64,000 bases of DNA from Candidatus Aegiribacteria sp. GTDB taxonomy: Bacteria > Fermentibacterota > Fermentibacteria > Fermentibacterales > JCC-6. Made by a program: the position numbers and the translations under genes. The notes under the pieces were generated by a model, which worked only from the letters and a program-made list of their open reading frames with translations, did no database searches and was not told the DNA's origin. Shown here piece by piece: positions 7,684 to 64,000 of the stretch. Location of the stretch: positions 1,506 to 65,505 of the forward strand of contig JAUXIK010000007.1 of the NCBI GenBank assembly GCA_030620995.1, read 5' to 3'. Position 1 is the first letter of the stretch. Each line of letters opens with the position of its first letter.

Positions 7684-8270
7684 TGCATGGTTTCGATTAT
7701 CCGGATGGTGCCACTCCCATTGATCCAGACGAAGCAGAAGACCTGCTTCTCACACATATAACCACACGTGGTGAATTAGATCGCTGGGAAGAGGAGAATA
7801 TTATTGAGGCGATGGACTGGCTTGACAGAACAAAGCCGACAGATATTCTGAATGAACTATTCGTCAGGGAACTTCACCGGCGCATGTTTGCCAATGTCTG
7901 GAAATGGGCAGGACATTTTAGGCACAGCGACAAGAATATCGGCGGACCGTGGTATCAGATTTCTGCGAACCTGAAAGACCTTTGCGATGACGTGCGCTTA
8001 TGGATAGAACTGCAGGAGTATCCACCCGATGAAGTGGCTATCCGTTTTCACCACCGGCTGGTGTTGATTCATCCATTTCCCAACGGCAACGGCCGCCATG
8101 CCCGGCTGATGACCGATCTTCTTCTTGAAAACATCCTCAATTACCCAAGGTTTACATGGGGAATCGAGGATCTGTCAAGAACCGGTAATGCCAGACAAAG
8201 ATACATCGCAACTCTTCACGCAGCAGATAAATACAACTATGAACCCTTGCGGAAGTTTGTTAGAACATAG
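7680..8270 (+). CDS. Mobile mystery protein B (Fic domain)
   Basis: HPFPNGNGRHARL Fic motif. The N-terminus GATPIDPDEAEDLLLTHITTRGELDRWEEENI is typical of this family. The ATG overlaps the upstream stop. Confidence 0.8.
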   Translation: MMHGFDYPDGATPIDPDEAEDLLLTHITTRGELDRWEEENIIEAMDWLDRTKPTDILNELFVRELHRRMFANVWKWAGHFRHSDKNIGGPWYQISANLKDLCDDVRLWIELQEYPPDEVAIRFHHRLVLIHPFPNGNGRHARLMTDLLLENILNYPRFTWGIEDLSRTGNARQRYIATLHAADKYNYEPLRKFVRT

Positions 8271-8371
8271 GACAGCATAAGCGAAGGAGGATAGGAAAGA
8301 CCGGGGATTAATAGAATCCGTTATTTTGAAATGAGTCATCTTGATCCAAGTATTTTAGAGGAAGGATTCAA

Positions 8372-9211
8372 ATGTTCAGAATATTCGCTGGAGTTGTTTC
8401 GCTGAGCCTTATGCTCGTGACTGGATGCGGCGGTGGTGACCAGCCGCAGACGGACGATACGGCAGGTGATGCCATCTCAGAAGAAGTCGCTGATGAGGTT
8501 ATTGAAGAGGTTGTTGAGGAAGCGGTTCTTTATCCCGAGGGGAAACTGGATCCTTCAGCAGTAACTCCGGATGTCGCTGTTGATGCATGGGCACTGAATG
8601 AAGCCTACTTCGCATGGATGGGGAAGGAAGTCACGCTTGTTGCATATCCCTATATCTGGTACGGTGATGATACTGTAGTAGAGGATGAGCTTCGACTTGT
8701 TGCCGATCCTGAATCTACAGATGAGCTTGCTACAGCCTGTTTCGATGAGCTCCAGAACCGGACGCTCATGCGGGGGGAGATCATATCCGTGCGGGGAATA
8801 GTGGAGGAGGGCTGGAGCGGTCCTGAACTTACAGGCGCTATCTTCATAGATCCACCCGAAAGTTTTGAAAGGGTCGAAACCAGTCCCTGGGTATATGACG
8901 TTGAACCCATTCCTGTTGATCAGTTCAGTGAGATGTTCAATGTCTGGATGGGAAAGGAAGTAACCGTGGAGAGTTACTACCACTCCACAACAACTTCCAC
9001 TACAGATTACGGCACTACCATCAGAATAGACCTTGCGGATCCTCAGGACACCTACACGAAGTACGCAGCATGCGAGATGCTGGAACCTCTTTCCGCTGTT
9101 TCCGAGTCACTTATCGTGGCTGATCGCGTCGGCGTTCAGATCAGAGGAACCATCGCAGATCCGTTCTTCGACAAGGTAAGGCTGGAAGGCTGTGTTCTGG
9201 TTAACAGGTAA
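8372..9211 (+). CDS. Lipoprotein, unknown function, internally duplicated
   Basis: Lipobox LVTGC and an acidic linker. The repeat is FAWMGKEVTLVAYPY / NVWMGKEVTVESYYH. Confidence 0.6.
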   Translation: MFRIFAGVVSLSLMLVTGCGGGDQPQTDDTAGDAISEEVADEVIEEVVEEAVLYPEGKLDPSAVTPDVAVDAWALNEAYFAWMGKEVTLVAYPYIWYGDDTVVEDELRLVADPESTDELATACFDELQNRTLMRGEIISVRGIVEEGWSGPELTGAIFIDPPESFERVETSPWVYDVEPIPVDQFSEMFNVWMGKEVTVESYYHSTTTSTTDYGTTIRIDLADPQDTYTKYAACEMLEPLSAVSESLIVADRVGVQIRGTIADPFFDKVRLEGCVLVNR

Positions 9212-39448: not shown

Positions 39449-41551
39449 TCAAGCTTTATCACTTGCCCCGGTTTCTGAAATAACCCTGTAAATTACCTCG
39501 CTCAGTTCCTCCAGTTTGTATGGCTTGGCGATGATTCCACTGAATCCATACTTCCTATAATCAGCCATTACCGCGTCTGTTGAGTAACCACTGGAGACAA
39601 TAGCCCTTACATCCGGGTCGAGTTTTAAAAGTTCCTGAATTGTCTCTCTGCCTCCCATACTTCCCGGTACGGTCAGGTCCAGGATGACTGCATTAAAGGG
39701 ATTTTTTTCTTCCCGGGCCTTTCGATATTTCTCGATTGCCTCGATGCCGTTTGAGGCTCCTTCCACCTCGTAACCAAGATATCTCAGAATACGGGCCAGG
39801 ATCATCTGAATTCTATCATCATCGTCCATTATCAGTATTCTGCCTTCCCCCCTGACAATTTTATTCTCCTGGCTTTCCTCTCTCAAGGCCTGACGGTCCG
39901 AAGCTGGAAGATAAATTGAGAAGGAGGTCCCGCTGCCCGTTTCTGATTCAACGGTGATCTGCCCGTTATGGTTTTTGATTATTGAATATACAGTAGCCAG
40001 CCCGAGGCCACTTCCCTGTTTTTTTGTCGTGAAATAGGGATCGAAGATTTTGTCCAGATATTCCTCCGGTATACCGACCCCGATGTCCTTGAAAGTCAGC
40101 AGGACATACTTTCCTTCCTCGAGGGAAAGATCTGTTTTCCCGTCCAGGACTATGTTCTCCGCGCTGATTTCTATGATTCCACCATCGAACATCGCCTGAT
40201 CAGCGTTGATTACCAGATTATTGACCACCTGGTAGAGTTGGCCGGTATCGACATCCAGTGGCCATAGATCATCCACGATCGAAAAGACAACCTTGCTTCC
40301 GGAACCGCTCAGGGCGAACAGCGCCGATTCCTGCAGGATATCGGCGAAGTTCACTGTCTTCTTGAGCGGCTTCCCCCCCATGGAAAAGGTGAGAAGCTGC
40401 TGGGTCAGGTTCTTCGCCTGCATGCATGAAAACTCTGCCTCGGTAAGGATCCTGTCGATCTCCATAACGTCAATTTCTTTCAGCTTCGCGAAGGAGATAT
40501 TTCCCATGATTGACATCAGAAGGTTGTTGAAATCATGAGCGATCCCACCGGCGAGGATACCGAGAGATTCGAGCTTCTGGGTATTCAGAAGCGCTTCCTC
40601 CGCTCGCTTGCGCTCGGTGATATCGCTCACTATATGAACTGCACCTTCCAGAGTCCCCTCTTCATCGAACAGCGGGTCAACGATCACCTCAAGCCATTGA
40701 TCATCAATCTTGACAGCAAGGATTTCCCGTTGTTTCGAACCACGCATCTTCACAAGCGGGCATTCCGCCAGGGGCTGAGAATTTCCGTGAATTACTTCAC
40801 AGCAGATCCGGCCGACAAGCTCCTTCTGCGAATTTCCGGCTAATTTCTCCATCGCCCGGTTGCACTGGATAATCCGAACATCCCCGTCCAGCAGACAGAC
40901 CGCATCCCTTATTCCGTTAAATGTGGTCCGCCACCGCTCAAACATAGTCCGGTAATTCTCCTCGCTCTTTCTCAGTGATCGGATCATATAGATTCGCTGA
41001 ATGATCATCCCTGCCAGGCTCAGGTAGGTATCGACCATATCCTTCATTTTCAGCTTCTGCCCGGGCGCCAGCTGTACCAGACCGGCAGCGATCAGCTCAC
41101 CTTCCCGGACACATGAAAGCCGGTAGCAGTTCTTTCCCTCGCGGAGATGAAGGCGATCGAGTACTGAACCGGCGAAGATCTCCACCAGACACTTCCGGTG
41201 CGCTTCACAGTGTTGAACCTGTTTTTCCTGAAAACTCCGGATAACAGAGCTGGAAACCTTTATTTCCTCACCGGGTAGTTCCAGAACGGAGATGTTACCG
41301 TTCTCTTCTCTCTGACAGACATAATCCAGGAACATGGTCTGCTGTTCGGAATTGAAGGTGGCGATTGCGGCAACCTGCCCACCGCAGATCATGAGGAGAT
41401 TACGGCAGAGAATGGACAGGATATCTTCATCGCTCGCGCCCTCGACCTCCACGGCAGTATCGTAAAGTATCCTGAAGGCCCGGTTGCGCTCTTCGAAGAT
41501 CAGAAGGGAGTGATCATCAGTCCTTCTTATCTTTTCCCTTTTCTCTTGCAT
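39449..41551 (-). CDS. Hybrid sensor histidine kinase/response regulator with PAS domain
   Basis: H-box GGIAHDFNNLL, G-box GSGLGLATV and a C-terminal receiver (ILIMDDDD...VILDLTVPG). Confidence 0.85.
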   Translation of the reverse strand: MQEKREKIRRTDDHSLLIFEERNRAFRILYDTAVEVEGASDEDILSILCRNLLMICGGQVAAIATFNSEQQTMFLDYVCQREENGNISVLELPGEEIKVSSSVIRSFQEKQVQHCEAHRKCLVEIFAGSVLDRLHLREGKNCYRLSCVREGELIAAGLVQLAPGQKLKMKDMVDTYLSLAGMIIQRIYMIRSLRKSEENYRTMFERWRTTFNGIRDAVCLLDGDVRIIQCNRAMEKLAGNSQKELVGRICCEVIHGNSQPLAECPLVKMRGSKQREILAVKIDDQWLEVIVDPLFDEEGTLEGAVHIVSDITERKRAEEALLNTQKLESLGILAGGIAHDFNNLLMSIMGNISFAKLKEIDVMEIDRILTEAEFSCMQAKNLTQQLLTFSMGGKPLKKTVNFADILQESALFALSGSGSKVVFSIVDDLWPLDVDTGQLYQVVNNLVINADQAMFDGGIIEISAENIVLDGKTDLSLEEGKYVLLTFKDIGVGIPEEYLDKIFDPYFTTKKQGSGLGLATVYSIIKNHNGQITVESETGSGTSFSIYLPASDRQALREESQENKIVRGEGRILIMDDDDRIQMILARILRYLGYEVEGASNGIEAIEKYRKAREEKNPFNAVILDLTVPGSMGGRETIQELLKLDPDVRAIVSSGYSTDAVMADYRKYGFSGIIAKPYKLEELSEVIYRVISETGASDKA

Positions 41552-41566
41552 ATTGATCTGACCGGG

Positions 41567-42118
41567 TTATGACTTGCGTCGCATAAGGATCAGGAGCCAG
41601 ATAAGGGCTCCCATAATCAGAGTCCCGGTAATAAAGGGAGCAGCTACCCCCAGCAGGTCGGGAAGAAGGACATTATGAATATTGTAGTTTTTCTCCAGCA
41701 GTGGATTCAGCCCATAGACCACCAGTGCCATTCCTGGAATCATGGAGACAAAGACAACGATAAAGGTCATGTTGCCTTCTCCGATCTGACGGAGCGTCCC
41801 CAGAATACAGCCCCCGTTCAGGAAGATACCAGCACCGAAAAAAATGCCGGACAGGAGGTTATAGAAACCGAATCCTCTCAGTTGTCCGATCGTTTTCAAC
41901 CCGAGTTCCGGAGAGATGTAACCGGAGATGAGAAAGCCCGCTGCGGTGATGATGAAGATAACGGCGAACATCCGGCAGATGCGCTTTCCCTTTCCGATGA
42001 ATATCTCGCCCAGCCCGTGGGCGAAGCAGAGACCGGCCCTCTGGACGAAGTATCCGAAGCCGATTCCGAACAGAAATCCGACCGCGACCAGCGTAGTGAA
42101 GTTCATGGTTTCCTCCAT
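41567..42118 (-). CDS. YeeE/YedE family sulfur-compound transport membrane protein
   Basis: GFGYFVQRAGLCF motif, polytopic. Confidence 0.7.
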   Translation of the reverse strand: MEETMNFTTLVAVGFLFGIGFGYFVQRAGLCFAHGLGEIFIGKGKRICRMFAVIFIITAAGFLISGYISPELGLKTIGQLRGFGFYNLLSGIFFGAGIFLNGGCILGTLRQIGEGNMTFIVVFVSMIPGMALVVYGLNPLLEKNYNIHNVLLPDLLGVAAPFITGTLIMGALIWLLILMRRKS

Positions 42119-42915: not shown

Positions 42916-45498
42916 TTACCCTTTCAGAAGTGCCCGGGCTATCGTCTTGAACAGATCATTCATAGTGTAAGGCTTACTGAGGAAGATCATCTGTCCCTTC
43001 TGGATAACATCAGGATCGGACATATAATTTGCATATCCACTCGTCAGTACTATGGGGAGTTCCGGATTGATTGAAAGAATCCGATTCGCAAGTTCTGTAC
43101 CCGGCATGCCGGACAGAATCACATCACTGAAAATCAGATCGATCTTTCCTTTTTCTTTCCTGAAGGTTTCAAGCGCCTCTTCCGCTGTAACGGCTTCCAC
43201 AACAGTATAGCCTTTCATTCGCAATGCGCTGGAAGCAAACGAAAGAACCTTTTCATCGTCTTCCACAACAAGAATTTTCTCATTGCATTCCCTGCCGACA
43301 GCGATTTCCAGGGGACTTTTTTCTTTCCTGACACTCTTCTTTATGTCAGATGTTAAAGCGGGCAGATATACTTTAAAGCATGAACCTTCTTCCAGCCTGC
43401 TTTCAACGTCCACCCATCCACCATGCTGCTTCACAATACCGTACACCGTCGAAAGCCCCAGTCCTGTACCCTGAGTACCTTTAGTCGAGAAGAAGGGTTC
43501 AAAAACTCTGCCTGTCGTTTCTGCATCCATCCCGATGCCGGAATCTTCAACTGACAGGAACACGAATCTACCGGTTGATGTTTCAGCTTCTGTATCTTTT
43601 ACTTCAAGGTCAAGAAATTGATTTCCCGTTGTAATCGTAAGGATGCCCCCATCCGGCATTGCGTCACGGGCATTGATAATCAGATTAAGGATAATCTGTC
43701 CGATCTGCCCGTCATCAGCCTCCGTGTTCCATAGATTTTTATCAGTACGAACCACCACTTCGATGTTCTCACCTATCACTCTGCGTATCATGCTCGTTAT
43801 ACCGGAAATGGTATCGTTGAGATTGATAATGCCAAGCTTCAGCACCTGCCTGCGGCTGATTGCAAGGAGCCTCTGGCAGAGTTCTGCGGCTCGAGCTGTA
43901 TTCTCTTTTATCTCCCGGATATCAGCAGTGACAGGATTGTTCGGTCCGGTCTGGAGCAGGGCAAGGTCACAGCAACCCATTATTGCTGTTAATGTGTTGT
44001 TGAAATCATGTGCTACTCCGCCTGCAAGCCTTCCTATGGCCTCCATCTTCTGTGCCTGCCGAAGATCATCCTCGAGTCGCCTATGGTCGGTAATATCGAT
44101 GAAACTCTCCAGTCCGCCGGCTATTTCACCCTTTGAGTCTCTTAGAAAATCAAGATTCTTCAATATCGTGATTTCCTTTCCATCGACATGCATTGTACAC
44201 TCCCTGTGATAGGCCGGCTTCTTCACAGTCTCCGAGAAAAGCGCGCATCCTTTCCTGCATGCATCACAGCCCATCGCGTTAAGACAATCCTGACCGATAA
44301 CTTCCTCTGCTTTCAGCCCCGTAATCATCTCGGCCTGCTTATTCCATGAAGTAATGCGTCTGTCCATATCTATCGTGAAAAGACCGCTCGGCATCGTCTC
44401 GAGTATCAGACGTAACCTTTCCTCGCTGTCCCGTACGGCTCTCTCCGCTTCCCTGCGCTCGGTGACATCGATTCCATGAGCAATCGTGGCAACAATTGTC
44501 GCTCCATCTTCAGCATAGATATTCGCCGAGTTCCAAAGCGCGTATCGAATACTGCCGTCAGTATGAAGAATCGGGATATCAACCGACTCCCAGAACTGAC
44601 CGTTCAGAGTGCTTTCGATCTTCTCAAGTGACTTCTCCATGCTCTCCTCTGGAAACAGTACGGAAAGCTTCTGTCCAACGATCTCGTGGGCCTTGCGACC
44701 TGCAAGAATCTCAAAGGCGTGATTGAATCGTGTAATGGTCGTGACCGGATCCCAGACTATTATCGGAGCGTTGGCGCAATAGATGATGCTTTCCAGATAG
44801 GAGCTTGTTTTTAACAGTTCTTCCTGTGTACGTTTGAGATCGCTGATATCGCTGAGGGTTACAATTGCAGTATCAGGCCTTCCTTCTGCGTCCCTTATGA
44901 ACGAAATACCAAGGAGTACAGCTGTTTTCCGACCATTTTTGGATATAATCGTAATCGTGGCTGGAGCTGGAACAGCGCCTCTGAGAGTGGCTTCAATAGC
45001 TCTCATAGTTACCGGTCCGTCATCCTGACTTAACAACATCATACCGATCTCGGTTACGTCTTTACCAAGGAGCTCGCTCATTTCGTAGCCGGACATCTTT
45101 TCAAAAGCCTGATTGGCGAAGGTTATCCTGCCGTCCCGGTCGTGCATAAGAAGCCCGGCGCCCATCGCGTTGACTGCATTGGAAACTGCCGCGAGACGTT
45201 CCTGTTCAGCCCTCTTCCTGCTGTTAATACTGATTCTGAAAACCAGCAGCACAAAAACACCGAACCCGAGAACAAAGACTGTCTCGGTCAATGCTTCTCT
45301 CCAGTTGACCGGGGTTGGTGGAGCGCCAAGAACATGATGGGGAATATCAAGAATTTCATTCAACCACAGAAACGAGATAATTACAATAATAGCTGCGGTG
45401 ACTATATACAGAATCCCATCGATCTGTGCTTTTTTCCGGATACGGGTTTTTCCGATATGATTCGATTCAGATGCGTTGAACAACTTCTGCGAAATCAC
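42916..45498 (-). CDS. Membrane-anchored multi-PAS hybrid sensor histidine kinase/response regulator
   Basis: N-terminal TM segments and several PAS-like modules. H-box GGVAHDFNNTL, G-box GTGLGLSTV and a C-terminal receiver. Confidence 0.85.
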   Translation of the reverse strand: MISQKLFNASESNHIGKTRIRKKAQIDGILYIVTAAIIVIISFLWLNEILDIPHHVLGAPPTPVNWREALTETVFVLGFGVFVLLVFRISINSRKRAEQERLAAVSNAVNAMGAGLLMHDRDGRITFANQAFEKMSGYEMSELLGKDVTEIGMMLLSQDDGPVTMRAIEATLRGAVPAPATITIISKNGRKTAVLLGISFIRDAEGRPDTAIVTLSDISDLKRTQEELLKTSSYLESIIYCANAPIIVWDPVTTITRFNHAFEILAGRKAHEIVGQKLSVLFPEESMEKSLEKIESTLNGQFWESVDIPILHTDGSIRYALWNSANIYAEDGATIVATIAHGIDVTERREAERAVRDSEERLRLILETMPSGLFTIDMDRRITSWNKQAEMITGLKAEEVIGQDCLNAMGCDACRKGCALFSETVKKPAYHRECTMHVDGKEITILKNLDFLRDSKGEIAGGLESFIDITDHRRLEDDLRQAQKMEAIGRLAGGVAHDFNNTLTAIMGCCDLALLQTGPNNPVTADIREIKENTARAAELCQRLLAISRRQVLKLGIINLNDTISGITSMIRRVIGENIEVVVRTDKNLWNTEADDGQIGQIILNLIINARDAMPDGGILTITTGNQFLDLEVKDTEAETSTGRFVFLSVEDSGIGMDAETTGRVFEPFFSTKGTQGTGLGLSTVYGIVKQHGGWVDVESRLEEGSCFKVYLPALTSDIKKSVRKEKSPLEIAVGRECNEKILVVEDDEKVLSFASSALRMKGYTVVEAVTAEEALETFRKEKGKIDLIFSDVILSGMPGTELANRILSINPELPIVLTSGYANYMSDPDVIQKGQMIFLSKPYTMNDLFKTIARALLKG

Positions 45499-52646: not shown

Positions 52647-53030
52647 TTACTTATCAGTCAATACAAGTTCCAGGGAAGCCTTCATTAATTCAAAGTGCTG
52701 GTCGAGGGTGTAGATTTCACAGTGATTCTGAAGTGCATTCTGTGCGATGATTAAGTCGGGTATACCAATACCGTTTATCCCTTGTTTCAAGCATTTGTGT
52801 TGAAATTCGATGATCTCTTTCCAATCAATATTCAAACTCAGCCGTTCGACGAAGTTCAACAGATCAATCAGTTTGTGTTGATTCTTAATTTTCAGGAATG
52901 GAATCAGTTCAGCAAGGATAAGGTCATTAATGACTAAAATGTTTTCATCAATCAAAAAATCCAGCTTGCCCGAGTTACTTCCGCCCCTGAAATAATCAAC
53001 CCAGACTGAAGAATCAACTAAAACCTGCAT
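52647..53030 (-). CDS. vapC: PIN-domain toxin VapC
   Basis: The N-terminus VLVDSSVWVDYFRG and conserved acidic positions are typical of the PIN domain. Confidence 0.8.
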   Translation of the reverse strand: MQVLVDSSVWVDYFRGGSNSGKLDFLIDENILVINDLILAELIPFLKIKNQHKLIDLLNFVERLSLNIDWKEIIEFQHKCLKQGINGIGIPDLIIAQNALQNHCEIYTLDQHFELMKASLELVLTDK

Positions 53031-53221
53031 TCACGACTCCGGACGCTGTCCATATCAATATCCAGATCGATTTTACCTTTGAATTCCTTCAGGCCAGAGA
53101 TAGTATATTTACGAATTAGTTCCTCCAAGGCTGTGATGATAACTTTGGTCTTCGTCTCGATATGGGTTGTTCGCATTGCTTCGATCATTAACTCTTCAGG
53201 TAAATTTAGAGTTGTTCTCAT
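53018..53221 (-). CDS. vapB: VapB-family antitoxin (DUF2191-like)
   Basis: MRTTLNLPEELMIEAMRTT is typical. It overlaps vapC. Confidence 0.75.
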   Translation of the reverse strand: MRTTLNLPEELMIEAMRTTHIETKTKVIITALEELIRKYTISGLKEFKGKIDLDIDMDSVRSRECRF

Positions 53222-54179: not shown

Positions 54180-54256
54180 TGGCGGTCCGGACGAGACTCG
54201 AACTCGCAACTTCCGGCGTGACAGGCCGGTGCTCTAGCCGATTGAACTACCGGACC
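54180..54256 (-). tRNA. tRNA-Asp: tRNA-Asp, anticodon GUC, CCA encoded
   Basis: Manual cloverleaf: acceptor GGTCCGG/CCGGACC, D stem GTTC/GAGC, anticodon stem CCGGC/GCCGG with loop CTGTCAC, T arm GCGAG-TTCGAGT-CTCGT, discriminator G, 77 nt. Confidence 0.9.
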
Positions 54257-55124: not shown

Positions 55125-56309
55125 ATGAGGCTTTCTGCTCTGGCGCTGGTTCTTTTTACAGCTGTGTTGTTTGCTTTCTGCCCGCTTGGACTACCTCCCG
55201 AAGAAGCCTGTTCCGCTGACAATCCTTTATGTGCTCTATATCAGGATAACGACGGCGATGATCTCTGTGACAACCCCGAGCCACAGCCTGAAAGCAGTTC
55301 TGATCAGGACACACAACTCCCCCCTGACAGTGCTCAGCAAGCAGACATTCCCGAAGTGATCGCGGAAGAAGATGATCCTGTCATTACCGAGGAATTTTCG
55401 GAGGAAGTCACCGAATCAGCTGTGATAATTGAAGAAACAGAGATCGATGTGCCTGAGGATTCCGTTATAGTCGATATCTCCGAAACAACATACCCTCTGC
55501 AGATCGAATCAAGCGGCTGTCCGCTTGATCTCCCCCCTGAAGCAGCATGCCCGACCCCTGAAGACCGCCTCTGTCCTCACTTCCGCGGAGGGGAGAGCTG
55601 TATCAATCCATCCGGGGGAGGTGTTCGAAGAACACAGTTGATAGTAATAGCCACTACCGTTCTACTCTTTGCAGCCACATTTCTGAAACGTCAATATAGA
55701 GGCCGCAGGAAGACTGATCGGCACAGGAGGAAAATCGCCCATATCATCATACAGACAATCTCGATTCTGGTTCTTGGTTTTTTCGTGCAGGGATGCTACT
55801 GTCCGCTGGGTGTTTTTCAATATATCTTCCTTCCCGGCGGAGTGGGTTTTCTCGGTGGAGTCGGTATCGCGGTTCTGCTGCTGCCTGCTCTGTGGAGTCT
55901 TTTCATCGGAAGGATCTATTGCGGCTGGGTATGCCCGTTCGGAGCCCTGCAGGATCTTCTTGGTAAACTGAACGTTCCCCGACCTCCAGCTTTTCCGAAG
56001 AAGGTTCACAGATTTCTCATTAACTTCAAGTATGTTCTGGCTGTAGCTTTCATTGGCGCGCTGATTCTTACAGGGAAAGGGTTCTTCGGCAGAATTATTC
56101 CAGCTTCTCTTTTCTGCCAGATAGATCCCTTCCATACTATTTTCTCGTATTTCATTGTCGGATCATTTACAGGGGCAATTGCTTCCCTGTGCTTGCTGAC
56201 ATTCTTTCCAAGATTTTTCTGTAAATACCTCTGTTTCTACGGAGCTGTTCTCAGTGTTCTTGGAAGAGCACGCCTGTGGGCCAGGATTAGCAGAAGGCAT
56301 AAGCAGTAA
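55125..56309 (+). CDS. Membrane polyferredoxin-like 4Fe-4S binding protein (NapH/NosR-type CxxCP motifs) with an acidic Cys-rich N-terminal extension
   Basis: YCGWVCPFGALQDLL and FFCKYLCFYGA sit between TM segments. The N-terminus has duplicated CPLGLPPEEAC / CPLDLPPEAAC modules. Confidence 0.6.
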   Translation: MRLSALALVLFTAVLFAFCPLGLPPEEACSADNPLCALYQDNDGDDLCDNPEPQPESSSDQDTQLPPDSAQQADIPEVIAEEDDPVITEEFSEEVTESAVIIEETEIDVPEDSVIVDISETTYPLQIESSGCPLDLPPEAACPTPEDRLCPHFRGGESCINPSGGGVRRTQLIVIATTVLLFAATFLKRQYRGRRKTDRHRRKIAHIIIQTISILVLGFFVQGCYCPLGVFQYIFLPGGVGFLGGVGIAVLLLPALWSLFIGRIYCGWVCPFGALQDLLGKLNVPRPPAFPKKVHRFLINFKYVLAVAFIGALILTGKGFFGRIIPASLFCQIDPFHTIFSYFIVGSFTGAIASLCLLTFFPRFFCKYLCFYGAVLSVLGRARLWARISRRHKQ

Positions 56310-58135: not shown

Positions 58136-58675
58136 TTACGCAAACGGACTTCTGAAGTTCTCTATTATTCTGGCGATTGTTCTGTGTTCTGCCAGAACAC
58201 GATATTCTAGAAGCTTAAGAACCGTCCTGAAGTGCTTCCACTCTTTCCCGAAGTTATCACTTGCCTCGATCAGCTCCTGCATTTCCTTGATGCTTATTTT
58301 CAGGAATTCGGAAGCGGAAGTACTGTCGATATCTTCTTCCAGAGCTCTGATAATCGCATTGAATTCCCCTTTATCCAGCCAGATTCCTCCACATTCCCTG
58401 CAGTAGTCCAGTTCAACTTCTGTATCAGTATATCCGATTAAAGCCATCTTTCCACCGCATGAAGGACATTTAGAAGAGTCCTTCCTGACATGGAAACCAT
58501 CTGTTTCCTTCCACAGATTGAATTCCATCCAGGCAAGGTCGGGATCAGCTATGTTCCTTGCCTGTCTCAATTCATCTCTGTCGAACCAGCTTCCACCACA
58601 ACCGGGACAGGTTTCAATTCTCACACCGGCAAATTCTGTTCCTTCCAGTTCCGTATTGCATCTGGGGCATATCAT
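58136..58675 (-). CDS. Double zinc-ribbon (zf-TFIIB-like) protein
   Basis: CPRC...CPGCGGSWFDRDEL and CPSC...CRECGGIWLDKGEF. Confidence 0.65.
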   Translation of the reverse strand: MICPRCNTELEGTEFAGVRIETCPGCGGSWFDRDELRQARNIADPDLAWMEFNLWKETDGFHVRKDSSKCPSCGGKMALIGYTDTEVELDYCRECGGIWLDKGEFNAIIRALEEDIDSTSASEFLKISIKEMQELIEASDNFGKEWKHFRTVLKLLEYRVLAEHRTIARIIENFRSPFA

Positions 58676-59877
58676 TAATCTTCCTCCTCTTCGCGCCAGT
58701 TCATAGAAATCAAACCTAAACTGATGGCATTATCGATAACAATCTGTGCTTGCTTTGCTACAGGAGGATCTATCATTTTCGAACCAAGAACCACTGCTCC
58801 AAGACCCTCTTTTTCCGCTTGCTCCATAGCAACTACGACCTTTTTTGCCCTGCTTACCACGCCGGATTCGGGAAGGAATCCTTCATTGATTATCGGAACC
58901 TGGATGGGATGAATGCACCCTTTGCCGATAAAACCAAGGGTCTTTGCTCTTCTGATCGATTCACGAAGCCCTTCTTCGTTTTTTACATCGGCGTAAACGG
59001 TGTCTATCGGCTGAAGTCCGGCAGCTCTTGCAGCAAGGACTATCAAACTCCGTGCCGTGAAGCTCTCTGTTCCCTCAACTGTTGGCGTAACACCCATCTC
59101 CGCTGAAAGATCCTGCAGCCCAAGCGTCAGCGCGACTGACTCCTCCGGAACCGACATGGCAATTGAAAGAGCGTTGAAGATTCCAAGGGGGCTCTCTATT
59201 ATCGGCATCAGCCAGACAGGTGCTTCCCTGCCGTATATCTCAGCAAGTTTCTCGATCATATCCCTTATGGAAGAAACTTCGTCCGCCAGTTCAACCTTGG
59301 GCAGCAGTATGTGCTGAACAGGCTGAGGTATAATCCAGTCAAGATCATCAATTGACAATTCGCCCTGATTGATTCGCACCATTACTTCCATCCCGCCGAA
59401 ATCAAGATTCTGCAGCGAGTAAGCCACAAGAATACGGGCTTCGAATTTCCTGTCCGGAGACACACTGTCCTCAAGATCGAGAATAACGGCGTCCGCTCCG
59501 GATGAGAGTGATTTCTCCATAAATCGTGGACGGTTACCGGGAACATACAGCCTCGATCTTCTGGGTCTGTATCGCTCGGATGAAATGATATTCACAACAG
59601 GAGGTAAAGCCGGAAAATCATCTCCAAGCACTTTCCGTGAAGCAGCTTCGAATCTTGCGGCGGCAACAAATGGCGCAGCGCCACAATCCTCTATATTGAC
59701 ACAGCCTGTTTGAATTCCCATCCGCTCCGCTGTTTTCCGGACTGCTTCCTCAATAAGATCGGGGGAAGAGCTGCCGTTTATGGTAATAGAAAGTTCTGCA
59801 TCAGTGTATTCGTAGGTAATTTTACAGTCTGATTTGACTTTAGGGCCGGAATATCCGCATGAAGCTTTACCTGGCAT
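58675..59877 (-). CDS. CitE-like (HpcH/HpaI aldolase / citrate lyase beta) protein with an N-terminal CitD (ACP)-like domain
   Basis: RRSRLYVPGNRPRFMEKS...DAVILDLEDSV is CitE-like. The first ~90 aa (..INGSS...IEDCGAAPFVAAARFEAA) resemble citrate lyase ACP. Confidence 0.6.
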   Translation of the reverse strand: MPGKASCGYSGPKVKSDCKITYEYTDAELSITINGSSSPDLIEEAVRKTAERMGIQTGCVNIEDCGAAPFVAAARFEAASRKVLGDDFPALPPVVNIISSERYRPRRSRLYVPGNRPRFMEKSLSSGADAVILDLEDSVSPDRKFEARILVAYSLQNLDFGGMEVMVRINQGELSIDDLDWIIPQPVQHILLPKVELADEVSSIRDMIEKLAEIYGREAPVWLMPIIESPLGIFNALSIAMSVPEESVALTLGLQDLSAEMGVTPTVEGTESFTARSLIVLAARAAGLQPIDTVYADVKNEEGLRESIRRAKTLGFIGKGCIHPIQVPIINEGFLPESGVVSRAKKVVVAMEQAEKEGLGAVVLGSKMIDPPVAKQAQIVIDNAISLGLISMNWREEEED

Positions 59878-59922: not shown

Positions 59923-61053
59923 CTAATGGGTAATATCGCAGGAAGAACAATCAGCCGGATCACACCCGAGAGGATTCAGCATGAGAAAAGTAAATCCTGA
60001 GTCAGGGTGACAGCGAAAAGCATACATCTCAAGAAATGACTGTACCCTATACCCCCGTTCGGAACACCAGGGTTCGTATTCAACAGCAAAGATTCTCATT
60101 CTCATACTCTCAAGGTATGCTGATACGCTGTCCTGCCAGGGAGAGGTATCAATCCCTGATCTGGAATCGATCCATACAGGAGTAATAACAGCGGACAGCT
60201 CCGGAACTGAGCTGATCTGCTGCAGCCAGCGGTCTTTATCGAACAGGATAACCTTCAGTGGCGGGAGATTCGCGCCGCTTATCTGTTCAGCAAGTTCAAC
60301 TCCCATGTCTTTCTCATCCTCTGCAAATGCCAGAATGTACAATGTATCGGCATCCTCAACTGAAAATATTGATATATCCGCATCTCCATGGGATTCATGA
60401 ACTGCCGTTTCAGACAGTTCCTGCCGCATGGAGGATTGTGATATCCATTGCGCAAGTCCTCTGATTCCAATCGCTCCAAAATAGATGGCAACGATAACAG
60501 CGATCACTCTGGCTGCCTTTGTAACCCAATCCTTAGCAGTTAGAAGACCGAAGACTGCAAAGGGGAGCATGTATACAGTGGTGCCTGCAAAGAATCCGAT
60601 AAATAGCATCATGCCCCTGATCGGACCGCTGGTATTGAAAGCGCTGGTAACAGCAATGAGGAACGCAGGGCAGATAGAAAATCCTGTAAGTAATCCGAGC
60701 AGGAAAGCGCTTCTTGTAATCTTGAGCAGTTTTCCTGTCTGACATCCTGAACAGGTTTTCCTGACTCTGACAACCGAAAGAAGAAGATATACCGAGAAAA
60801 GGAGATAGCCGAACAGAACTATCGGAGTTCTGACGGAAGCAGGAATTACTCCTCCCAGCTGTCCTATAAGCGCTCCGAACATAGCGTATGCGATGAACCT
60901 TCCGGCGTTTAGCTTCAGGATCACCCACAATGCCTGGAATCCGGTTCGCTTCTCCCCGAGAAGGTAAACCCCATAGACAGGACCACAGGAAGCAAGACAG
61001 GTCAAACCTGTTGCCAGACCCAGTGATAACCCTGCACTCAGTGATTCAAACAA
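59923..61053 (-). CDS. Polytopic membrane protein with CxxC in TM1 (DsbD_2/CcdA/TauE-like) and a C-terminal soluble domain
   Basis: GLTCLASCGPVYG, about 6 TM segments, then a ~170-aa domain ending CDPADCSSC. Confidence 0.45.
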   Translation of the reverse strand: MFESLSAGLSLGLATGLTCLASCGPVYGVYLLGEKRTGFQALWVILKLNAGRFIAYAMFGALIGQLGGVIPASVRTPIVLFGYLLFSVYLLLSVVRVRKTCSGCQTGKLLKITRSAFLLGLLTGFSICPAFLIAVTSAFNTSGPIRGMMLFIGFFAGTTVYMLPFAVFGLLTAKDWVTKAARVIAVIVAIYFGAIGIRGLAQWISQSSMRQELSETAVHESHGDADISIFSVEDADTLYILAFAEDEKDMGVELAEQISGANLPPLKVILFDKDRWLQQISSVPELSAVITPVWIDSRSGIDTSPWQDSVSAYLESMRMRIFAVEYEPWCSERGYRVQSFLEMYAFRCHPDSGFTFLMLNPLGCDPADCSSCDITH

Positions 61054-61077
61054 CAGGTGATCCTTTCAAAAACCGTA

Positions 61078-61100
61078 CAGGGACACGAAATGTGTCCCTG
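61078..61100 (-). terminator. Hairpin terminator after the OMP gene
   Basis: CAGGGACAC-GAAAT-GTGTCCCTG. On the minus strand it is followed by TACGGTTTTTG. Confidence 0.6.
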
Positions 61101-61129
61101 CTGATAAGTATCCCTGGATAAAAGTAATG

Positions 61130-62326
61130 CTATAAACTCAGCGAACCCGGATAGAACTCCAGCCCTGTCCGAACACGCCACCAGACCTCAACTTCTTCCA
61201 GGTCAGTTCTTTCCTGCTCAATGATACCCCATACGCGAAGGGTGGTTGCAAGCTGATATTCCAGCCCGGGGCCGAATACAATCCACTTTCTTGTATCACC
61301 GGCTCCGGCAACCGAGGTCGGGGTTGAGCGGGCTTCAGCATTCAGCAGAAGTGATAATCCCCTGTAGAAATTGATTCTAGAGAATAGAACAGCTCGTTCA
61401 GTTCGGATCGAAGAGGTTGAAAGCTTACCTGACAATGTGATTATCGATGGCACTTCCCTCGATCTCATGAAGTGATAGATAATCCTTGATTCGGCGGAAG
61501 TGCAGGCAGGTCTGATCTCTCCATCGTAATCGATTACGGACTCGAATGTGGTGTTCACCGCAAGTGATGGAACTATCATGCGAACCAATCGGATCCTCGA
61601 GGTAAACCTGTCAGCCAGATCATTCCCCAGAAAATTGGTACCGTTGTAGAATGAGTATGTAACATCGCCTGTCACATAGAAGTGGGCGGGAAGGGATTGC
61701 GGCTCAGTGGAAAACGCAATATCAAACCTGCCCCAGGTAGACTCATAATCAATGAAATCGGAGTTCGTCTTATGGTACAAACCTGACATGTTTAATGTAA
61801 ATCCTGATGTTTCACAGGAAATTCCGCCGTTCAGACGGGATTCCGTCCACGCGAGATCGTAACCATTCTCCTGCTTTAAATCTCTGTTCCAGTACAGTCC
61901 TTTTACAAAGACATGATAATTCTCTGAAAAATCAGCAGCAAGAGACAGTCCGGGTCTGATAAAACCTTCTCTATATGCCACCCCGGCCTGCACCGGAAGA
62001 ACCATCTCCGGCTTATCGCCCAGATCAACAGTCCAGCATAGATCAGGATTTATGGTAACAGGCCCTGCATCGACTATGAAATCAATGTCAGTCCGGCTAT
62101 ACGTATTAAGTATCCTTGGCACAATACCGGAGCTGTCCTCGTGAGAATACTGTTCCTCAAGTATAAGTGTCCAGTTGTCAGTGCTGAGCATTCCTCCAAG
62201 TTCGAGTCTGCCGGGTTCAGGCGAAAGGCTGTCGCCTCCTGTCTGAACATCCATCCACCCGTCAAGAGAAGCCGCAAATACAAGAGCTGGAAGCAGAAGA
62301 AGCAGTGGAATCGTTTTACCGATCAT
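61130..62326 (-). CDS. Putative outer-membrane beta-barrel protein
   Basis: I prefer the ATG at 62326 (MIGKTIPLLLLLPALVFAAS signal peptide), which gives a TGATG overlap with the upstream gene. Alternating amphipathic strands throughout. Confidence 0.5.
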   Translation of the reverse strand: MIGKTIPLLLLLPALVFAASLDGWMDVQTGGDSLSPEPGRLELGGMLSTDNWTLILEEQYSHEDSSGIVPRILNTYSRTDIDFIVDAGPVTINPDLCWTVDLGDKPEMVLPVQAGVAYREGFIRPGLSLAADFSENYHVFVKGLYWNRDLKQENGYDLAWTESRLNGGISCETSGFTLNMSGLYHKTNSDFIDYESTWGRFDIAFSTEPQSLPAHFYVTGDVTYSFYNGTNFLGNDLADRFTSRIRLVRMIVPSLAVNTTFESVIDYDGEIRPACTSAESRIIYHFMRSREVPSIITLSGKLSTSSIRTERAVLFSRINFYRGLSLLLNAEARSTPTSVAGAGDTRKWIVFGPGLEYQLATTLRVWGIIEQERTDLEEVEVWWRVRTGLEFYPGSLSL

Positions 62327-62574
62327 CAGTATATCGCTCCTTCTGGACACTGCTCAACACATCTGTAGCAGAAGTGACAGAGGGAAGGATCGATCACGGC
62401 GTTACCATCAATTATTTCTATGGCGCCGTAGGGACAGACTTCAACACATTCTCCGCAGCCGGTACAAGCATCGGTATCTACAATCAGCTGGGTACTTTCG
62501 ACCGGTCCTTTGCATGCAGACAGCAGCACCAGGACAGCAGCGACTATAACAAGAACCCTAGCGTATGGCGTCAT
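62326..62574 (-). CDS. Small 2x[4Fe-4S] ferredoxin-domain lipoprotein
   Basis: Lipobox LLSAC, then CTGCGECVEVCP and CHFCYRCVEQCP. Confidence 0.65.
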   Translation of the reverse strand: MTPYARVLVIVAAVLVLLSACKGPVESTQLIVDTDACTGCGECVEVCPYGAIEIIDGNAVIDPSLCHFCYRCVEQCPEGAIY

Positions 62575-62794
62575 AGCTGCACACCCCCTGACAGAACCCG
62601 CATCCTATGCAAGCCTGGGGATCTATATAGGATTTACCATCGATGATCTCTATCGCGTCAACCGGACAGACAAGTTTACAATCTCCGCAGCCCGTGCACC
62701 TGGCTCGATCAACCCTGTAGACAACCTCTGCCACAGCTATTGATACAATGACCAGAAGCAGTATCGATGTAAGAACAAGTGCTTTTCGGCTCAT
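62558..62794 (-). CDS. Small 2x[4Fe-4S] ferredoxin-domain protein with an N-terminal hydrophobic anchor/signal
   Basis: The internal ATG at 62794 (MSRKALVLTSILLLVIVSIAVA) forms an ATGA overlap with the upstream stop. Motifs CTGCGDCKLVCP and CIGCGFCQGVC. Confidence 0.6.
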   Translation of the reverse strand: MSRKALVLTSILLLVIVSIAVAEVVYRVDRARCTGCGDCKLVCPVDAIEIIDGKSYIDPQACIGCGFCQGVCSYDAIR

Positions 62795-63285
62795 TGCTCG
62801 ATCCCCTGAAGAAAGATTTCCGAGCCTTCTTCGGAAACGCCGAACAGAGCGAAATGAGTTCTGGAAGATGGCGCGAATATGGTATTGACAGGACAGGCAT
62901 TTGCACACAGTCCGCAGGCTATGCATAGTTCAGGATTTACTATCGCGATATTGTCATCTCCCATAGTAATCGCGTCTACAGGGCATGCATTAATACAGAG
63001 CTGGCAGGATATGCAGCCACCCGGCTCAACGATAAATGCCCCTGGAATCATTACCGAGCAGGGAAACACTCCTGCTGAATCGGAATATATCGTAGCAAAC
63101 ACCGCTCCCCAGTCAGGATCGTCAGTATCATACTCCGCCTGAGACCCTCTCAGTACGAGGTGCTGGTAATCAACTTCTACCGGATCCCACTGGATAAGCC
63201 CGCCGTTTGCATCCTGTGAGTAGACAACCGAACCGGCAGCTAAAAAACTCAGTATCAGTAAAATTGCTGGAACAAACTTTTTCAT
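62791..63285 (-). CDS. Secreted-type 2x[4Fe-4S] ferredoxin-domain protein
   Basis: Signal peptide MKKFVPAILLILSFLAAGSVVYSQ. Motifs CISCQLCINACP and CIACGLCANACP. ATGA overlap with the upstream gene. Confidence 0.65.
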   Translation of the reverse strand: MKKFVPAILLILSFLAAGSVVYSQDANGGLIQWDPVEVDYQHLVLRGSQAEYDTDDPDWGAVFATIYSDSAGVFPCSVMIPGAFIVEPGGCISCQLCINACPVDAITMGDDNIAIVNPELCIACGLCANACPVNTIFAPSSRTHFALFGVSEEGSEIFLQGIEQ

Positions 63286-64000
63286 TCCGCAACAACCTGT
63301 CTTTTAATTGACCATAACCCGTACTCGTGGCACTGGATGAAGCATTGGCCGCAGTTTATGCATTTATCGTAGTCAATATGAACCATCCCGGAATCCACTC
63401 CGGGTGTGTTCCAGTCCGGTGTGTACCAGACTGCATCAACCGGACATCCGGGACCGCAGGAATCAAGAAGAATGTAACATCCGTAAGCACAATGACCGCA
63501 CCATTTAGGATCATTAAAGTAGCGGAGCCTGTAGCTACCGGAAGCAGTAACTACTTCCGACGGCGCGTCTCCGGAACCCATGGCTCTGATGCCAAAGAAG
63601 TAAGCCTGCCCATACCTGCTGTCTGAGATCGCGTTCACGGGACATACACGAACACATTCACCACATGCAGTACACCTGTCCAGATCAATAACGGCTTTTC
63701 CATCAATGAGATGTATGGCATCCTGCGGACATGCGTCAACACACAAACCGCACCCGATACATGTATTCTCGAACACTTCGGGCTGAACCTGAACATGCGC
63801 GACCATGCTGGCGCTGTCTCCGACTGGAACCGAGGCGATCGGCACCGCATTATCCCAGTTAGAATCATCTATGGGATCTGGTGATATTCTTATCTCATAC
63901 CACTCCGCATCATCAGCGGCTGTCCAGCGCAATGTAAATGTTGAAGTTTCTCCTTCGGCAATATCACCATAGGTAAAGCCCGTATCCACAGTCAGTTCTG
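63282..64000 (-). CDS. Fn3-like plus multi-[4Fe-4S] ferredoxin-domain protein, 5' end outside the window
   Basis: The frame stays open to the window edge. Motifs are TFTLRWTAADDAEWYEIR (Fn3-like), CIGCGLCVDACP, CTACGECVRVCP and CINCGQCFIQC. Confidence 0.6.
   Translation of the reverse strand, partial: ELTVDTGFTYGDIAEGETSTFTLRWTAADDAEWYEIRISPDPIDDSNWDNAVPIASVPVGDSASMVAHVQVQPEVFENTCIGCGLCVDACPQDAIHLIDGKAVIDLDRCTACGECVRVCPVNAISDSRYGQAYFFGIRAMGSGDAPSEVVTASGSYRLRYFNDPKWCGHCAYGCYILLDSCGPGCPVDAVWYTPDWNTPGVDSGMVHIDYDKCINCGQCFIQCHEYGLWSIKRQVVAE

Follow-up and report, generated by a model that had tools for sequence, protein, structure and literature searches.

The closest described counterparts of the gene cluster analyzed here include the outer-membrane electron conduits MtrCAB, PioAB and MtoAB (of Shewanella, Rhodopseudomonas and Sideroxydans). 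The cluster, six minus-strand genes in a row that are denoted A to F, fills the last ~4 kb of a 64,000-nt stretch of DNA from Candidatus Aegiribacteria sp. (GCA_030620995.1, contig JAUXIK010000007.1, forward-strand positions 1,506-65,505), which is hereinafter called the window. As in the MtrCAB-type systems, genes A-E form an operon for a predicted barrel and predicted periplasmic and lipoprotein redox proteins, the barrel lacks a plug of its own, and the redox centers would number about ten in total. The differences concern the cofactor, which is heme in the MtrCAB-type conduits, whereas A-E lack the CxxCH motif and are predicted to bind [4Fe-4S] clusters; the barrel, which comprises 26 strands and ~650-700 amino acids in MtrB compared to ~20 predicted strands and 398 amino acids in E; and the redox proteins, one or two large ones in MtrCAB-type systems as opposed to the four small ones A-D. 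Furthermore, cytochromes are matured by Ccm after export via Sec, whereas no maturation route is known for A-D.

Several other systems resemble parts of this locus. The Geobacter Pcc conduits (OmaB-OmbB-OmcB), which arose apart from Mtr, include a porin located between periplasmic and outer-membrane redox proteins. Porins of the Pcc conduits described to date are predicted to have 18-22 strands in the membrane (PMC4245776), which is the size class of E, but their partners are multiheme cytochromes of another phylum, and E is likened to OmbB by description only. The NapGH and NrfCD systems combine extracytoplasmic 4Fe-4S ferredoxins with a membrane protein of the Fer4_5 (NapH-like) type, a combination reminiscent of A-D and the nearby gene J; however, the signals of NapG and NrfC are of the twin-arginine type, and both proteins are exported in folded form (PMC5449189), whereas those of A, B and D are of the Sec or lipoprotein type, NapGH includes no outer-membrane component, and J lacks the cytoplasmic dicluster domain of NapH. 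In LptD-LptE, as in D-E, the gene for a small lipoprotein is coupled to that for a large plugless barrel, but LptD has 26 strands and a periplasmic jellyroll, moves lipopolysaccharide and is unrelated to E by sequence, and D is a ferredoxin. Finally, F resembles CcdA and DsbD in its Pfam match to DsbD_2, its six predicted transmembrane (TM) helices and its conserved Cys-Pro motifs in TM1 and TM4, and is encoded beside presumably Sec-exported Cys-rich redox apoproteins as ccdA is with cytochromes; in contrast to these proteins, it has an additional CxxC in a cytoplasmic loop, a unique alpha/beta C-terminal domain and a Cys-rich tail.

A first-pass annotation, made from the letters of the window alone, had suggested that genes A-E encode a non-heme envelope electron conduit. 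The results described below, namely the export signals, the barrel, the lack of an adjacent oxidoreductase and the strict co-occurrence of these genes across the phylum Fermentibacterota, speak for such a system, whereas the conduction of electrons as such is put forward here as a tentative proposal. In the searchable literature, we found no description of an exported ferredoxin associated with a barrel, nor of a DsbD_2 protein linked to ferredoxins.

Four predicted ferredoxins with conserved cluster ligands

Fer4-type domains were identified by Pfam in all four proteins A-D with E-values of 1e-15 to 1e-20 (2.7e-20 for A), far over the cut-offs (54-72 bits on PF00037 against a cut-off of 21), and dicluster models were matched as well; the NCBIfam matches were generic ones to the dicluster domain, below threshold and with RnfB models among them. 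Judging by these comparisons, A-D contain bacterial-type 2x[4Fe-4S] ferredoxin domains of the Fer4 clan, with cluster binding predicted. Among the open reading frames (ORFs) of the whole 64-kb window, only A-D contain the CxxCxxCxxxC motif, and a motif scan detected no CxxCH either in the genes of the cluster or elsewhere among the ORFs of the window, in agreement with the first-pass annotation, which had seen no heme-binding sites.

The complete protein A consists of a signal peptide, a lipobox, a ~90-aa beta-rich N-terminal domain, a canonical dicluster domain and an atypical dicluster-like domain (C-x2-C-x3-C-x6-C-x3-CP plus CxxCxxCxxxCH), whereas the mature part of B consists of a ~60-aa N-terminal domain followed by the 2x[4Fe-4S] domain. 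The N-terminal domains of A and B match neither Fn3 nor any other Pfam family (for A, at E <= 1), so that the label "Fn3-like" initially attached to A was not borne out. The CxxCxxCxxxC(P) motifs originally ascribed to all four proteins are borne out with respect to the ferredoxin domains themselves but not in every detail: the second motif of C ends in CS instead of CP, and the second domain of A is the atypical one. Given one canonical and one atypical domain in A, the four proteins together offer up to ten [4Fe-4S] sites.

The cysteines of these domains are conserved to a high degree in alignments of ~18 orthologues with 47-90% identity. All 18 cysteines of A (17 ligands and the lipobox Cys) are invariant in 17 orthologues; the same holds for all 8 ligands of C, 7 of the 8 ligands of B, and 7 of the 8 ligands of D along with its lipobox Cys, the eighth ligand of D being present in 95% of the orthologues. 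The cluster motifs are also retained in a divergent high-GC clade. The mature forms of A, B and D are strongly acidic; mature C is only ~56 aa long and mature D 62 aa, with a net charge of about -8. C is probably a soluble periplasmic carrier, and D is a candidate plug or partner of the barrel E. Some Aegiribacteria genomes contain a second copy of gene A directly upstream of the operon (L008:6078-6884 and 8170-8988; L007:2-427 and 439-1248).

Export signals

The window cuts gene A at its 5' end. An exact-sequence look-up of B led to a near-identical 44-kb metagenomic contig, L001, which reaches 1.4 kb further and thus supplied the missing part: on L001, A is a 273-aa lipoprotein that starts at a TTG codon behind a strong Shine-Dalgarno sequence (AGGAGG), with the N-terminal signal MRKQAIPLIFLAMTVVMTS^C (here and below, ^ marks the predicted cleavage site) and the lipobox VMTS^C. 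Upstream of A, L001 contains only a tRNA-Ser gene before the contig ends.

The N-termini of A-D were compared across 21 genome loci and 6 metagenome loci, and export signals were judged by eye. In every orthologue, A and D begin with a basic n-region, a hydrophobic stretch and a lipobox (...LL(M/I)(A/V)S^C in A and ...L(L/F)(I/S)A^C in D; LLSA^CKGP in the window copy of D), in which the Cys is 100% conserved, so both have the sequence characteristics of bacterial lipoproteins, i.e., predicted substrates of signal peptidase II. The signal peptide of B is of the signal peptidase I type (MKKF...VYS^QD in the window, MK(T/K)LIPAV...TFS^QD in orthologues), with K/R before and D/E after the hydrophobic segment (18 orthologue N-termini compared). 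The first-pass annotation had thus read the lipobox of D and the Sec signal of B correctly, whereas what it took for a hydrophobic N-terminal anchor of C looks like a cleavable signal peptide, with an (S/T)-R-(R/K) n-region, a hydrophobic core and an AxA^E cleavage site. The lipoboxes of A and D, the charge pattern of B and the AxA site of C all point to export, and not to the cytoplasmic topology of the Fe-S domains that the first-pass annotation had named among the outcomes that would make this an ordinary ferredoxin cluster. Given the invariance of the lipoboxes, the exported topology of A and D, as opposed to an RnfB-like arrangement, is unambiguous.

The statement that none of these proteins carries a twin-arginine motif holds for the window copies of A-D, all of which lack RR, and, isolated cases aside, for the orthologues of A, B and D. 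In the relevant position, A has RK, NN, NK or SK, D has a single R, and B has KK, KT or KA, with RR in one orthologue only; accordingly, A, B and D do not show the S/T-R-R-x-F-L-K motif expected of proteins exported by twin-arginine translocation (Tat). The statement does not extend to C, whose orthologues always have (S/T/L)-R-(R/K)-x-hydrophobic-hydrophobic, with RR in ~9 of 23, and a strongly hydrophobic, Sec-like h-region. Thus, a Tat route might be available to C alone.

A predicted outer-membrane barrel of about 20 strands

The last gene of the operon, E, had been taken for a barrel in view of its beta-like periodicity, and structure modeling agrees with this assignment. An AlphaFold2 model based on 37 homologues (mean predicted local distance difference test score, pLDDT, 81) consists of a signal helix and an all-beta barrel of 20 long strands with short connections and no plug, in which apolar and polar residues alternate along the strands. 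The consensus C-terminus of the family, ...EFYPGSxxF, ends in an aromatic residue as is typical of outer-membrane proteins; the window copy ends in ...GSLSL. Hence E is most likely an outer-membrane barrel of about 20 strands. In the model, the polar face that lines the lumen contains 25 charged residues, among them 13 Arg, that are at least 90% conserved. By a simple geometric estimate, not derived from coordinates, the lumen is ~2.5 nm wide, about the size of a 55-residue dicluster ferredoxin, and a plugless barrel of 20 strands would have the width of barrels in which a plug or partner usually occupies the pore.

By sequence, the family stands apart: E has no Pfam match at E <= 0.01 and no NCBIfam match, a search of 13 diverse members against Pfam at E <= 1 gave weak generic OMP_b-brl matches alone (in 3 of the 13), and the family profile found no relative among PDB sequences. 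Accordingly, by Pfam and PDB sequence searches, E is not a member of the MtrB_PioB family; nor does the model of ~20 strands, in a window devoid of CxxCH proteins, correspond to the 26-strand barrel around a decaheme cytochrome that is typical of these porins. A Foldseek search of PDB with the model of E returned large barrels only, with MtrB (6r2q_B) on top (E = 2e-6, TM-score 0.54/0.36, 12% identity). Next came Occ porins, LptD, and BtuB along with further TonB-dependent transporters, and all matches besides MtrB are large barrels with a plug or partner inside, as in BtuB and LptD. This result reflects the size class of the barrel and not homology. One metagenomic protein, P0050 (227 aa), in which the first half of D (lipobox and first motif) is fused in frame to the last 170 residues of E, was examined as a possible natural fusion of the two and rejected: given that the join lies at a 'DG' shared by both genes, inside each of them and with the loss of half of each, it is most likely an assembly or deletion artefact.

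Gene order and distribution

A profile of the barrel was searched against 1.84 billion representatives, one per 50%-identity cluster of ~15 billion proteins, and found just 23 matches. All named sources of the homologues of E, F and A (Candidatus Aegiribacteria, Fermentibacter, Sabulitectum and Fermentibacterales) belong to Fermentibacterota (formerly Hyd24-12), a phylum of the FCB superphylum. Genome studies characterize its members as strict anaerobes and obligate fermenters that inhabit digesters, methane seeps and sulfidic sediments and frequently live in partnership with sulfate reducers (PMC5030696, PMC5763382). In this family of loci, E never occurs without the four ferredoxins; the co-occurrence is strict.

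The order A-B-C-D-E-F is the same at every locus with enough flanking DNA, including 21 genome loci of Aegiribacteria and Fermentibacteraceae, the high-GC clade in which the barrels are only ~30% identical, Sabulitectum, and a 2.5-Mb contig (L032) of a lineage related to Ca. Fermentibacter; the metagenomic loci were gathered with a 5-sequence subset of the barrel alignment. The neighborhood comparison that the first-pass annotation had called for thus recovers this arrangement from over 25 independent contigs, whose barrels are as little as ~30% identical, so the arrangement is not due to chance. Upstream of A, the gene content varies from genome to genome, which places the start of the unit at A. 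The proximity of a cytoplasmic oxidoreductase, which would have suggested an ordinary ferredoxin cluster, was not observed: the region upstream of A contains tRNA-Ser and then variable genes, and no oxidoreductase is adjacent to the cluster.

The coordinates of the cluster and its neighbors are given in Table 1. The translational coupling of the five genes A-E described in the first-pass annotation is present, with the overlaps as reported: ATGA at both the A/B and B/C junctions, 17 nt between C and D (62558-62574), and TGATG (1 nt) between D and E, with Shine-Dalgarno sequences ahead of C, D and E. The hairpin noted after E was found as well, in the 76-nt spacer between E and F, as a GC-rich 10-bp stem and loop at 61077-61101 with a T-run beside it. 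Most of the E-F spacers of the related loci L005-L025 contain a hairpin, and the stem letters vary by lineage while the pairing is kept (for example, GCAGGGACAC/GTGTCCCTGT, GCAGGGACATT/GATGTCCCTGC, GCGGGGGCACGG/CCGTGTCCCCGC and GCCTGCGGG/CCCGCAGGC). A strong U-run is usually missing at the orthologous hairpins, and the element, instead of being a full terminator, may act in attenuation or mRNA stability and in this way set the ratio of A-E to F.

Table 1. Features of the A-F cluster and neighboring genes (positions in the window)
Feature	Coordinates	Strand	Description
Gene A	63282 to beyond 64000	-	3' 238 codons in window; full protein 273 aa
Gene B	62791..63285	-	164 aa; predicted Sec-type signal peptide and 2x[4Fe-4S] ferredoxin domain
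Gene C	62558..62794	-	78 aa; predicted signal peptide and 2x[4Fe-4S] ferredoxin
Gene D	62326..62574	-	82-aa predicted lipoprotein; 2x[4Fe-4S] ferredoxin
Gene E	61130..62326	-	398-aa predicted outer-membrane beta-barrel
Hairpin and T-run, E-F spacer	61067..61101	-	10 bp GC-rich stem, loop 5
Gene F	59923..61053	-	376-aa DsbD_2-family (PF13386) membrane protein
Gene G	58675..59877	-	CitD-CitE fusion
Gene H	58136..58675	-	double zinc-ribbon protein
Gene J	55125..56309	+	394-aa NapH/NosR-like (Fer4_5) membrane protein

Neighboring genes and related operons

Gene F is located downstream of E in all lineages. Its product, annotated as 'sulfite exporter TauE/SafE' at NCBI, matches DsbD_2 with E = 1.3e-20, and its AlphaFold2 model (pLDDT 75) shows six TM helices along with a C-terminal alpha/beta domain, which is predicted well, and a tail rich in Cys. 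Invariant cysteines are found in TM1 (C-x3-CGP) and TM4 (ICP), as in CcdA and DsbD, and in a CxxC motif within a loop; by the positive-inside rule, the termini would be outside the cytoplasm and the basic loop with this CxxC inside. Neither a sequence profile nor the fold (at E <= 0.001) identified CcdA, DsbD or any other relative of F among solved structures, and the C-terminal domain belongs to no Pfam family and is not thioredoxin-like. For the assignment of F to the DsbD/CcdA type in the first-pass annotation, the Pfam family and the invariant TM1 and TM4 cysteines speak in favor and the missing match to solved CcdA or DsbD structures speaks against, and a family name does not in itself establish a function. 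The superfamily includes metal transporters besides DsbD, and F can be considered a candidate reductant relay, metal carrier or cluster carrier.

The association of J with the cluster is looser. The gene is adjacent in L032 and its high-GC relatives L027 and L028 and ~5 kb away in Aegiribacteria and L030; in Sabulitectum, it was not found within 10 kb of the cluster. Its product matches Fer4_5 (PF12801) in two stretches (E = 1.9e-14; motifs CGWVCP and FCKYLCF) and reaches 49 bits with the NCBIfam model of NosR (cut-off 1000) and 35 bits with that of NapH (cut-off 213). It contains no CxxCxxCxxxC motif, i.e., it lacks the cytoplasmic 2x[4Fe-4S] domain of NapH. Thus, by sequence comparison, J has the Fer4_5 TM core without qualifying as an equivalog of NapH or NosR. 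The head of the protein consists of a signal peptide and two copies of CPLGxxPExAC separated by a long, very acidic low-complexity linker, and this extracytoplasmic Cys-rich head is kept even in the high-GC clade (MAACPLGYTPGSACSDSSPGCGLF...). We regard J as a candidate inner-membrane module for electron entry.

The other neighbors are less constant. Gene G directly follows F in all lineages but one (L030, where both G and H are missing after F), H is also missing in L027, L028, L032 and L033, and H and an SNF transporter come and go; G and H are probably not part of the system. In G, a CitD-like acyl-carrier domain of citrate lyase is fused to a CitE/HpcH-type lyase, with no obvious link to ferredoxins, and no CitF was noticed near it; H comprises two TFIIB-type zinc ribbons and is translationally coupled to G in Aegiribacteria only. 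The conserved block ends just past J, around a tRNA gene (54183-54256, minus strand; Rfam RF00005) and a VapB/VapC (PIN) toxin-antitoxin pair (~52650-53221, minus strand). Farther away, a Sulf_transp (YeeE/YedE-like) fragment or ORF (41567-42118, minus strand) lies between two PAS hybrid histidine kinases (39449-41551 and 42916-45498, both on the minus strand); it could matter if the envelope system handles sulfur compounds.

Outside the phylum-specific family of loci, parts of the system recur without a barrel. At 32% identity, P0261 is the full-length relative of A that has diverged furthest; it is encoded on the 7.7-kb contig L035 (44.5% GC). Its operon (L035:19-4471) is headed by a gene for an F-like DsbD_2 protein, which is 40% identical in the membrane part and shares the TM1 and TM4 cysteines as well as a tail rich in Cys, and also encodes the A-like lipoprotein itself (FFLA^CSDD...), a ferredoxin of 170 aa whose N-terminus contains a hydrophobic segment, and a 594-aa NapH-like Fer4_5 polyferredoxin; selB follows. 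No barrel was seen on this contig, and the operon may represent a related, barrel-free system of a different lineage. In a digester organism with 32% GC (L038:2121-3540; also L039 and L040), a small Fer4_5 membrane protein is encoded directly upstream of a 215-aa protein that has a signal peptide without a twin-arginine motif, two dicluster ferredoxin domains and a Lys/Glu/Thr-rich linker; the pair lies downstream of a sigma-54 activator. Taken together, L035 and L038 indicate that an exported-looking ferredoxin associated with a NapH-like protein, sometimes along with DsbD_2, is a wider theme, of which the barrel with four ferredoxins appears to be an elaboration in Fermentibacterota. Another relative of A, P0262 (363 aa), proved to be a cytoplasmic polyferredoxin from an operon of an archaeal hydrogenase of the Mbh/Eha type and was set aside as irrelevant.

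A putative heme-free electron conduit

The reading that we tentatively adopt, as quite possible though short of probable, is that A-E form a heme-free porin-ferredoxin electron conduit across the envelope of Fermentibacterota, which possess an outer membrane, similar in function to MtrCAB and Pcc and not homologous to them. The four exported ferredoxin-type proteins would provide up to ten [4Fe-4S] sites, with C and perhaps B too serving as soluble periplasmic carriers, and D and A anchored by lipids at the outer membrane. The lumen of E might house, or be lined by, one small acidic ferredoxin, much as MtrA is held in MtrB or LptE in LptD. Protein A is perhaps exposed on the cell surface: it has acidic residues right after the lipidated Cys, and residues of this kind act as a surface-export signal in Bacteroidota lipoproteins. 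Under this scenario, fermentation would feed electrons in at the inner membrane, perhaps by way of J; they would then cross the periplasm on C and B and exit via D, E and A to an external acceptor, for which sulfur or polysulfide, Fe(III), humics or a syntrophic partner are candidates. F would keep the 40-odd exported cysteines reduced or deliver the cofactor. For a fermenter that has to dispose of reduced ferredoxin, an Fe-S route of low potential to an external sink would be a good fit.

This proposal is consistent with every test that we ran, yet it is unproven, and several observations weigh against it. The match of E to MtrB reflects generic barrel similarity, other barrels having matched with nearly the same E-values. 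As a static wire, ten clusters do not suffice to span the whole periplasm. The superfamily of F also holds metal and anion transporters, and F has no solved relative. J is a weak link, given the absence of the cytoplasmic ferredoxin domain and its absence within 10 kb of the cluster in Sabulitectum. Finally, twin arginines are missing from virtually every orthologue of A, B and D, which leaves the export of holo-proteins unexplained.

The last point bears on how the clusters would be acquired. Known extracytoplasmic Fe-S proteins are exported folded via Tat, as illustrated by NapG and by NapH-NapG fusions (PMC5449189). The lack of twin arginines in A, B and D implies that clusters may be inserted outside the cytoplasm; use of Tat by these three proteins without the motif is unlikely. 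Chemically, the proteins could plausibly acquire their clusters after Sec export in a setting that is reducing and rich in sulfide and iron, with help from F. In the most far-reaching version of the proposal, A-D would be exported unfolded via Sec and Lol, and the clusters would be inserted outside the cytoplasm with F as the maturation factor, yielding a ten-cluster heme-free conduit through E that ends in surface-exposed A; F would then act as a CcdA-like relay, with cysteines on a cytoplasmic loop, in the membrane and on the periplasmic tail, and the resulting route of extracytoplasmic Fe-S biogenesis would parallel cytochrome c maturation. The combination of all these elements we consider unlikely.

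The scenarios that compete with the conduit differ in where the chain of ferredoxins ends and in what the proteins carry. A-D could form a NapG-like chain that terminates in the periplasm, between J and a substrate or enzyme encoded elsewhere (e.g., for the reduction of polysulfide or sulfur), in which case E would be only a channel for a substrate or product. The pairing of a Fer4_5 membrane protein with a periplasmic polyferredoxin is established for NapH/NapG (PMC5449189), in L035 and L038-L040 a signal-peptide ferredoxin is paired with a Fer4_5 protein in the absence of a barrel, a Sulf_transp gene is present in the window, and Fermentibacteria have been linked to sulfur cycling (PMC5030696). 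We nevertheless consider this scenario rather unlikely, given that the barrel is never found without the four ferredoxins and is translationally coupled to D, that a plugless 20-strand barrel with a conserved charged lumen would be oversized for small solutes, that two of the ferredoxins are lipoproteins and hence placed at a membrane, and that the cluster has no linked catalytic subunit in the lineages examined. Clearly less probable still is a role in Fe-S acquisition, salvage or buffering, whereby E would admit FeS or iron, A-D would bind it in the envelope, and F, a protein of the LysE/DsbD superfamily, would move iron, sulfide or clusters across the inner membrane. Four distinct, coupled ferredoxins with canonical electron-transfer motifs exceed the needs of binding or storage, the association with a NapH-like redox protein points to electron transfer, and the cluster includes no TonB-dependent receptor, protease or ATP-binding cassette (ABC) importer, even though this role would fit the metal transporters within the superfamily of F, the thiophilic cysteines of F in TM helices and on both membrane faces, and the presumable arrival of A-D as apo-proteins in the absence of a Tat signal. 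The habitat, which is sulfidic and rich in iron sulfide (PMC5763382), and the precedent of Pectobacterium, which imports ferredoxin for its iron (PMC6042079), would be compatible with it as well.

Two further possibilities deny either the export of A-D or their clusters, and both seem highly improbable. RnfB models are among the best NCBIfam matches of A and B, and the charges flanking the hydrophobic segment of C are only mildly asymmetric, so one could think of ordinary cytoplasmic ferredoxins held by RnfB-like N-out anchors next to an unrelated outer-membrane protein; but the best score with rnfB is far under the cut-off (47.5 compared to 68.7 bits) and covers the generic dicluster domain only, all four N-termini begin with basic residues, which an RnfB-type N-out anchor does not have ahead of it, and A-D thus do not appear to be of the RnfB type, quite apart from the invariant lipoboxes of A and D, the charge pattern of B, the AxA site of C and the strict co-occurrence with the barrel across the phylum. 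As for exported proteins that retain the ferredoxin fold without Fe-S clusters, held together by disulfides or zinc and acting as structural or adhesive partners of the barrel, the delivery of unfolded apo-proteins by Sec would be in line with this possibility, and we know of no Fe-S assembly system in the periplasm. However, the exact CxxCxxCxxxCP spacing, including the Pro, is kept in A-D over a large divergence, which is a signature of selection for cluster ligation; the host is a strict anaerobe, so periplasmic thiols need not oxidise; and the genes are linked to those of the redox membrane proteins F and J.

Implications

Even if A-D turn out to be only a periplasmic redox chain, the locus still stands for an outer-membrane protein family and a class of lipoprotein ferredoxins that are both new. 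The Sec or lipoprotein signals on three of the four proteins challenge the rule that extracytoplasmic Fe-S proteins are exported folded, and Fe-S assembly outside the cytoplasm thereby turns from a long-standing into a testable question, with F as a specific candidate factor; periplasmic Fe-S maturation, if confirmed, would be categorically new. If the conduit proposed above is real, its construction from ferredoxins would mean that heme is not required for the evolution of extracellular electron transfer. Current searches of genomes for electroactive microbes are based on counts of CxxCH motifs (e.g., PMC11475568) and would therefore miss organisms with a heme-free conduit. Fermentibacterota, which are common in digesters, seeps and sulfidic sediments, would then no longer be plain fermenters: an 'obligate fermenter' could respire external acceptors or wire itself to syntrophic partners.

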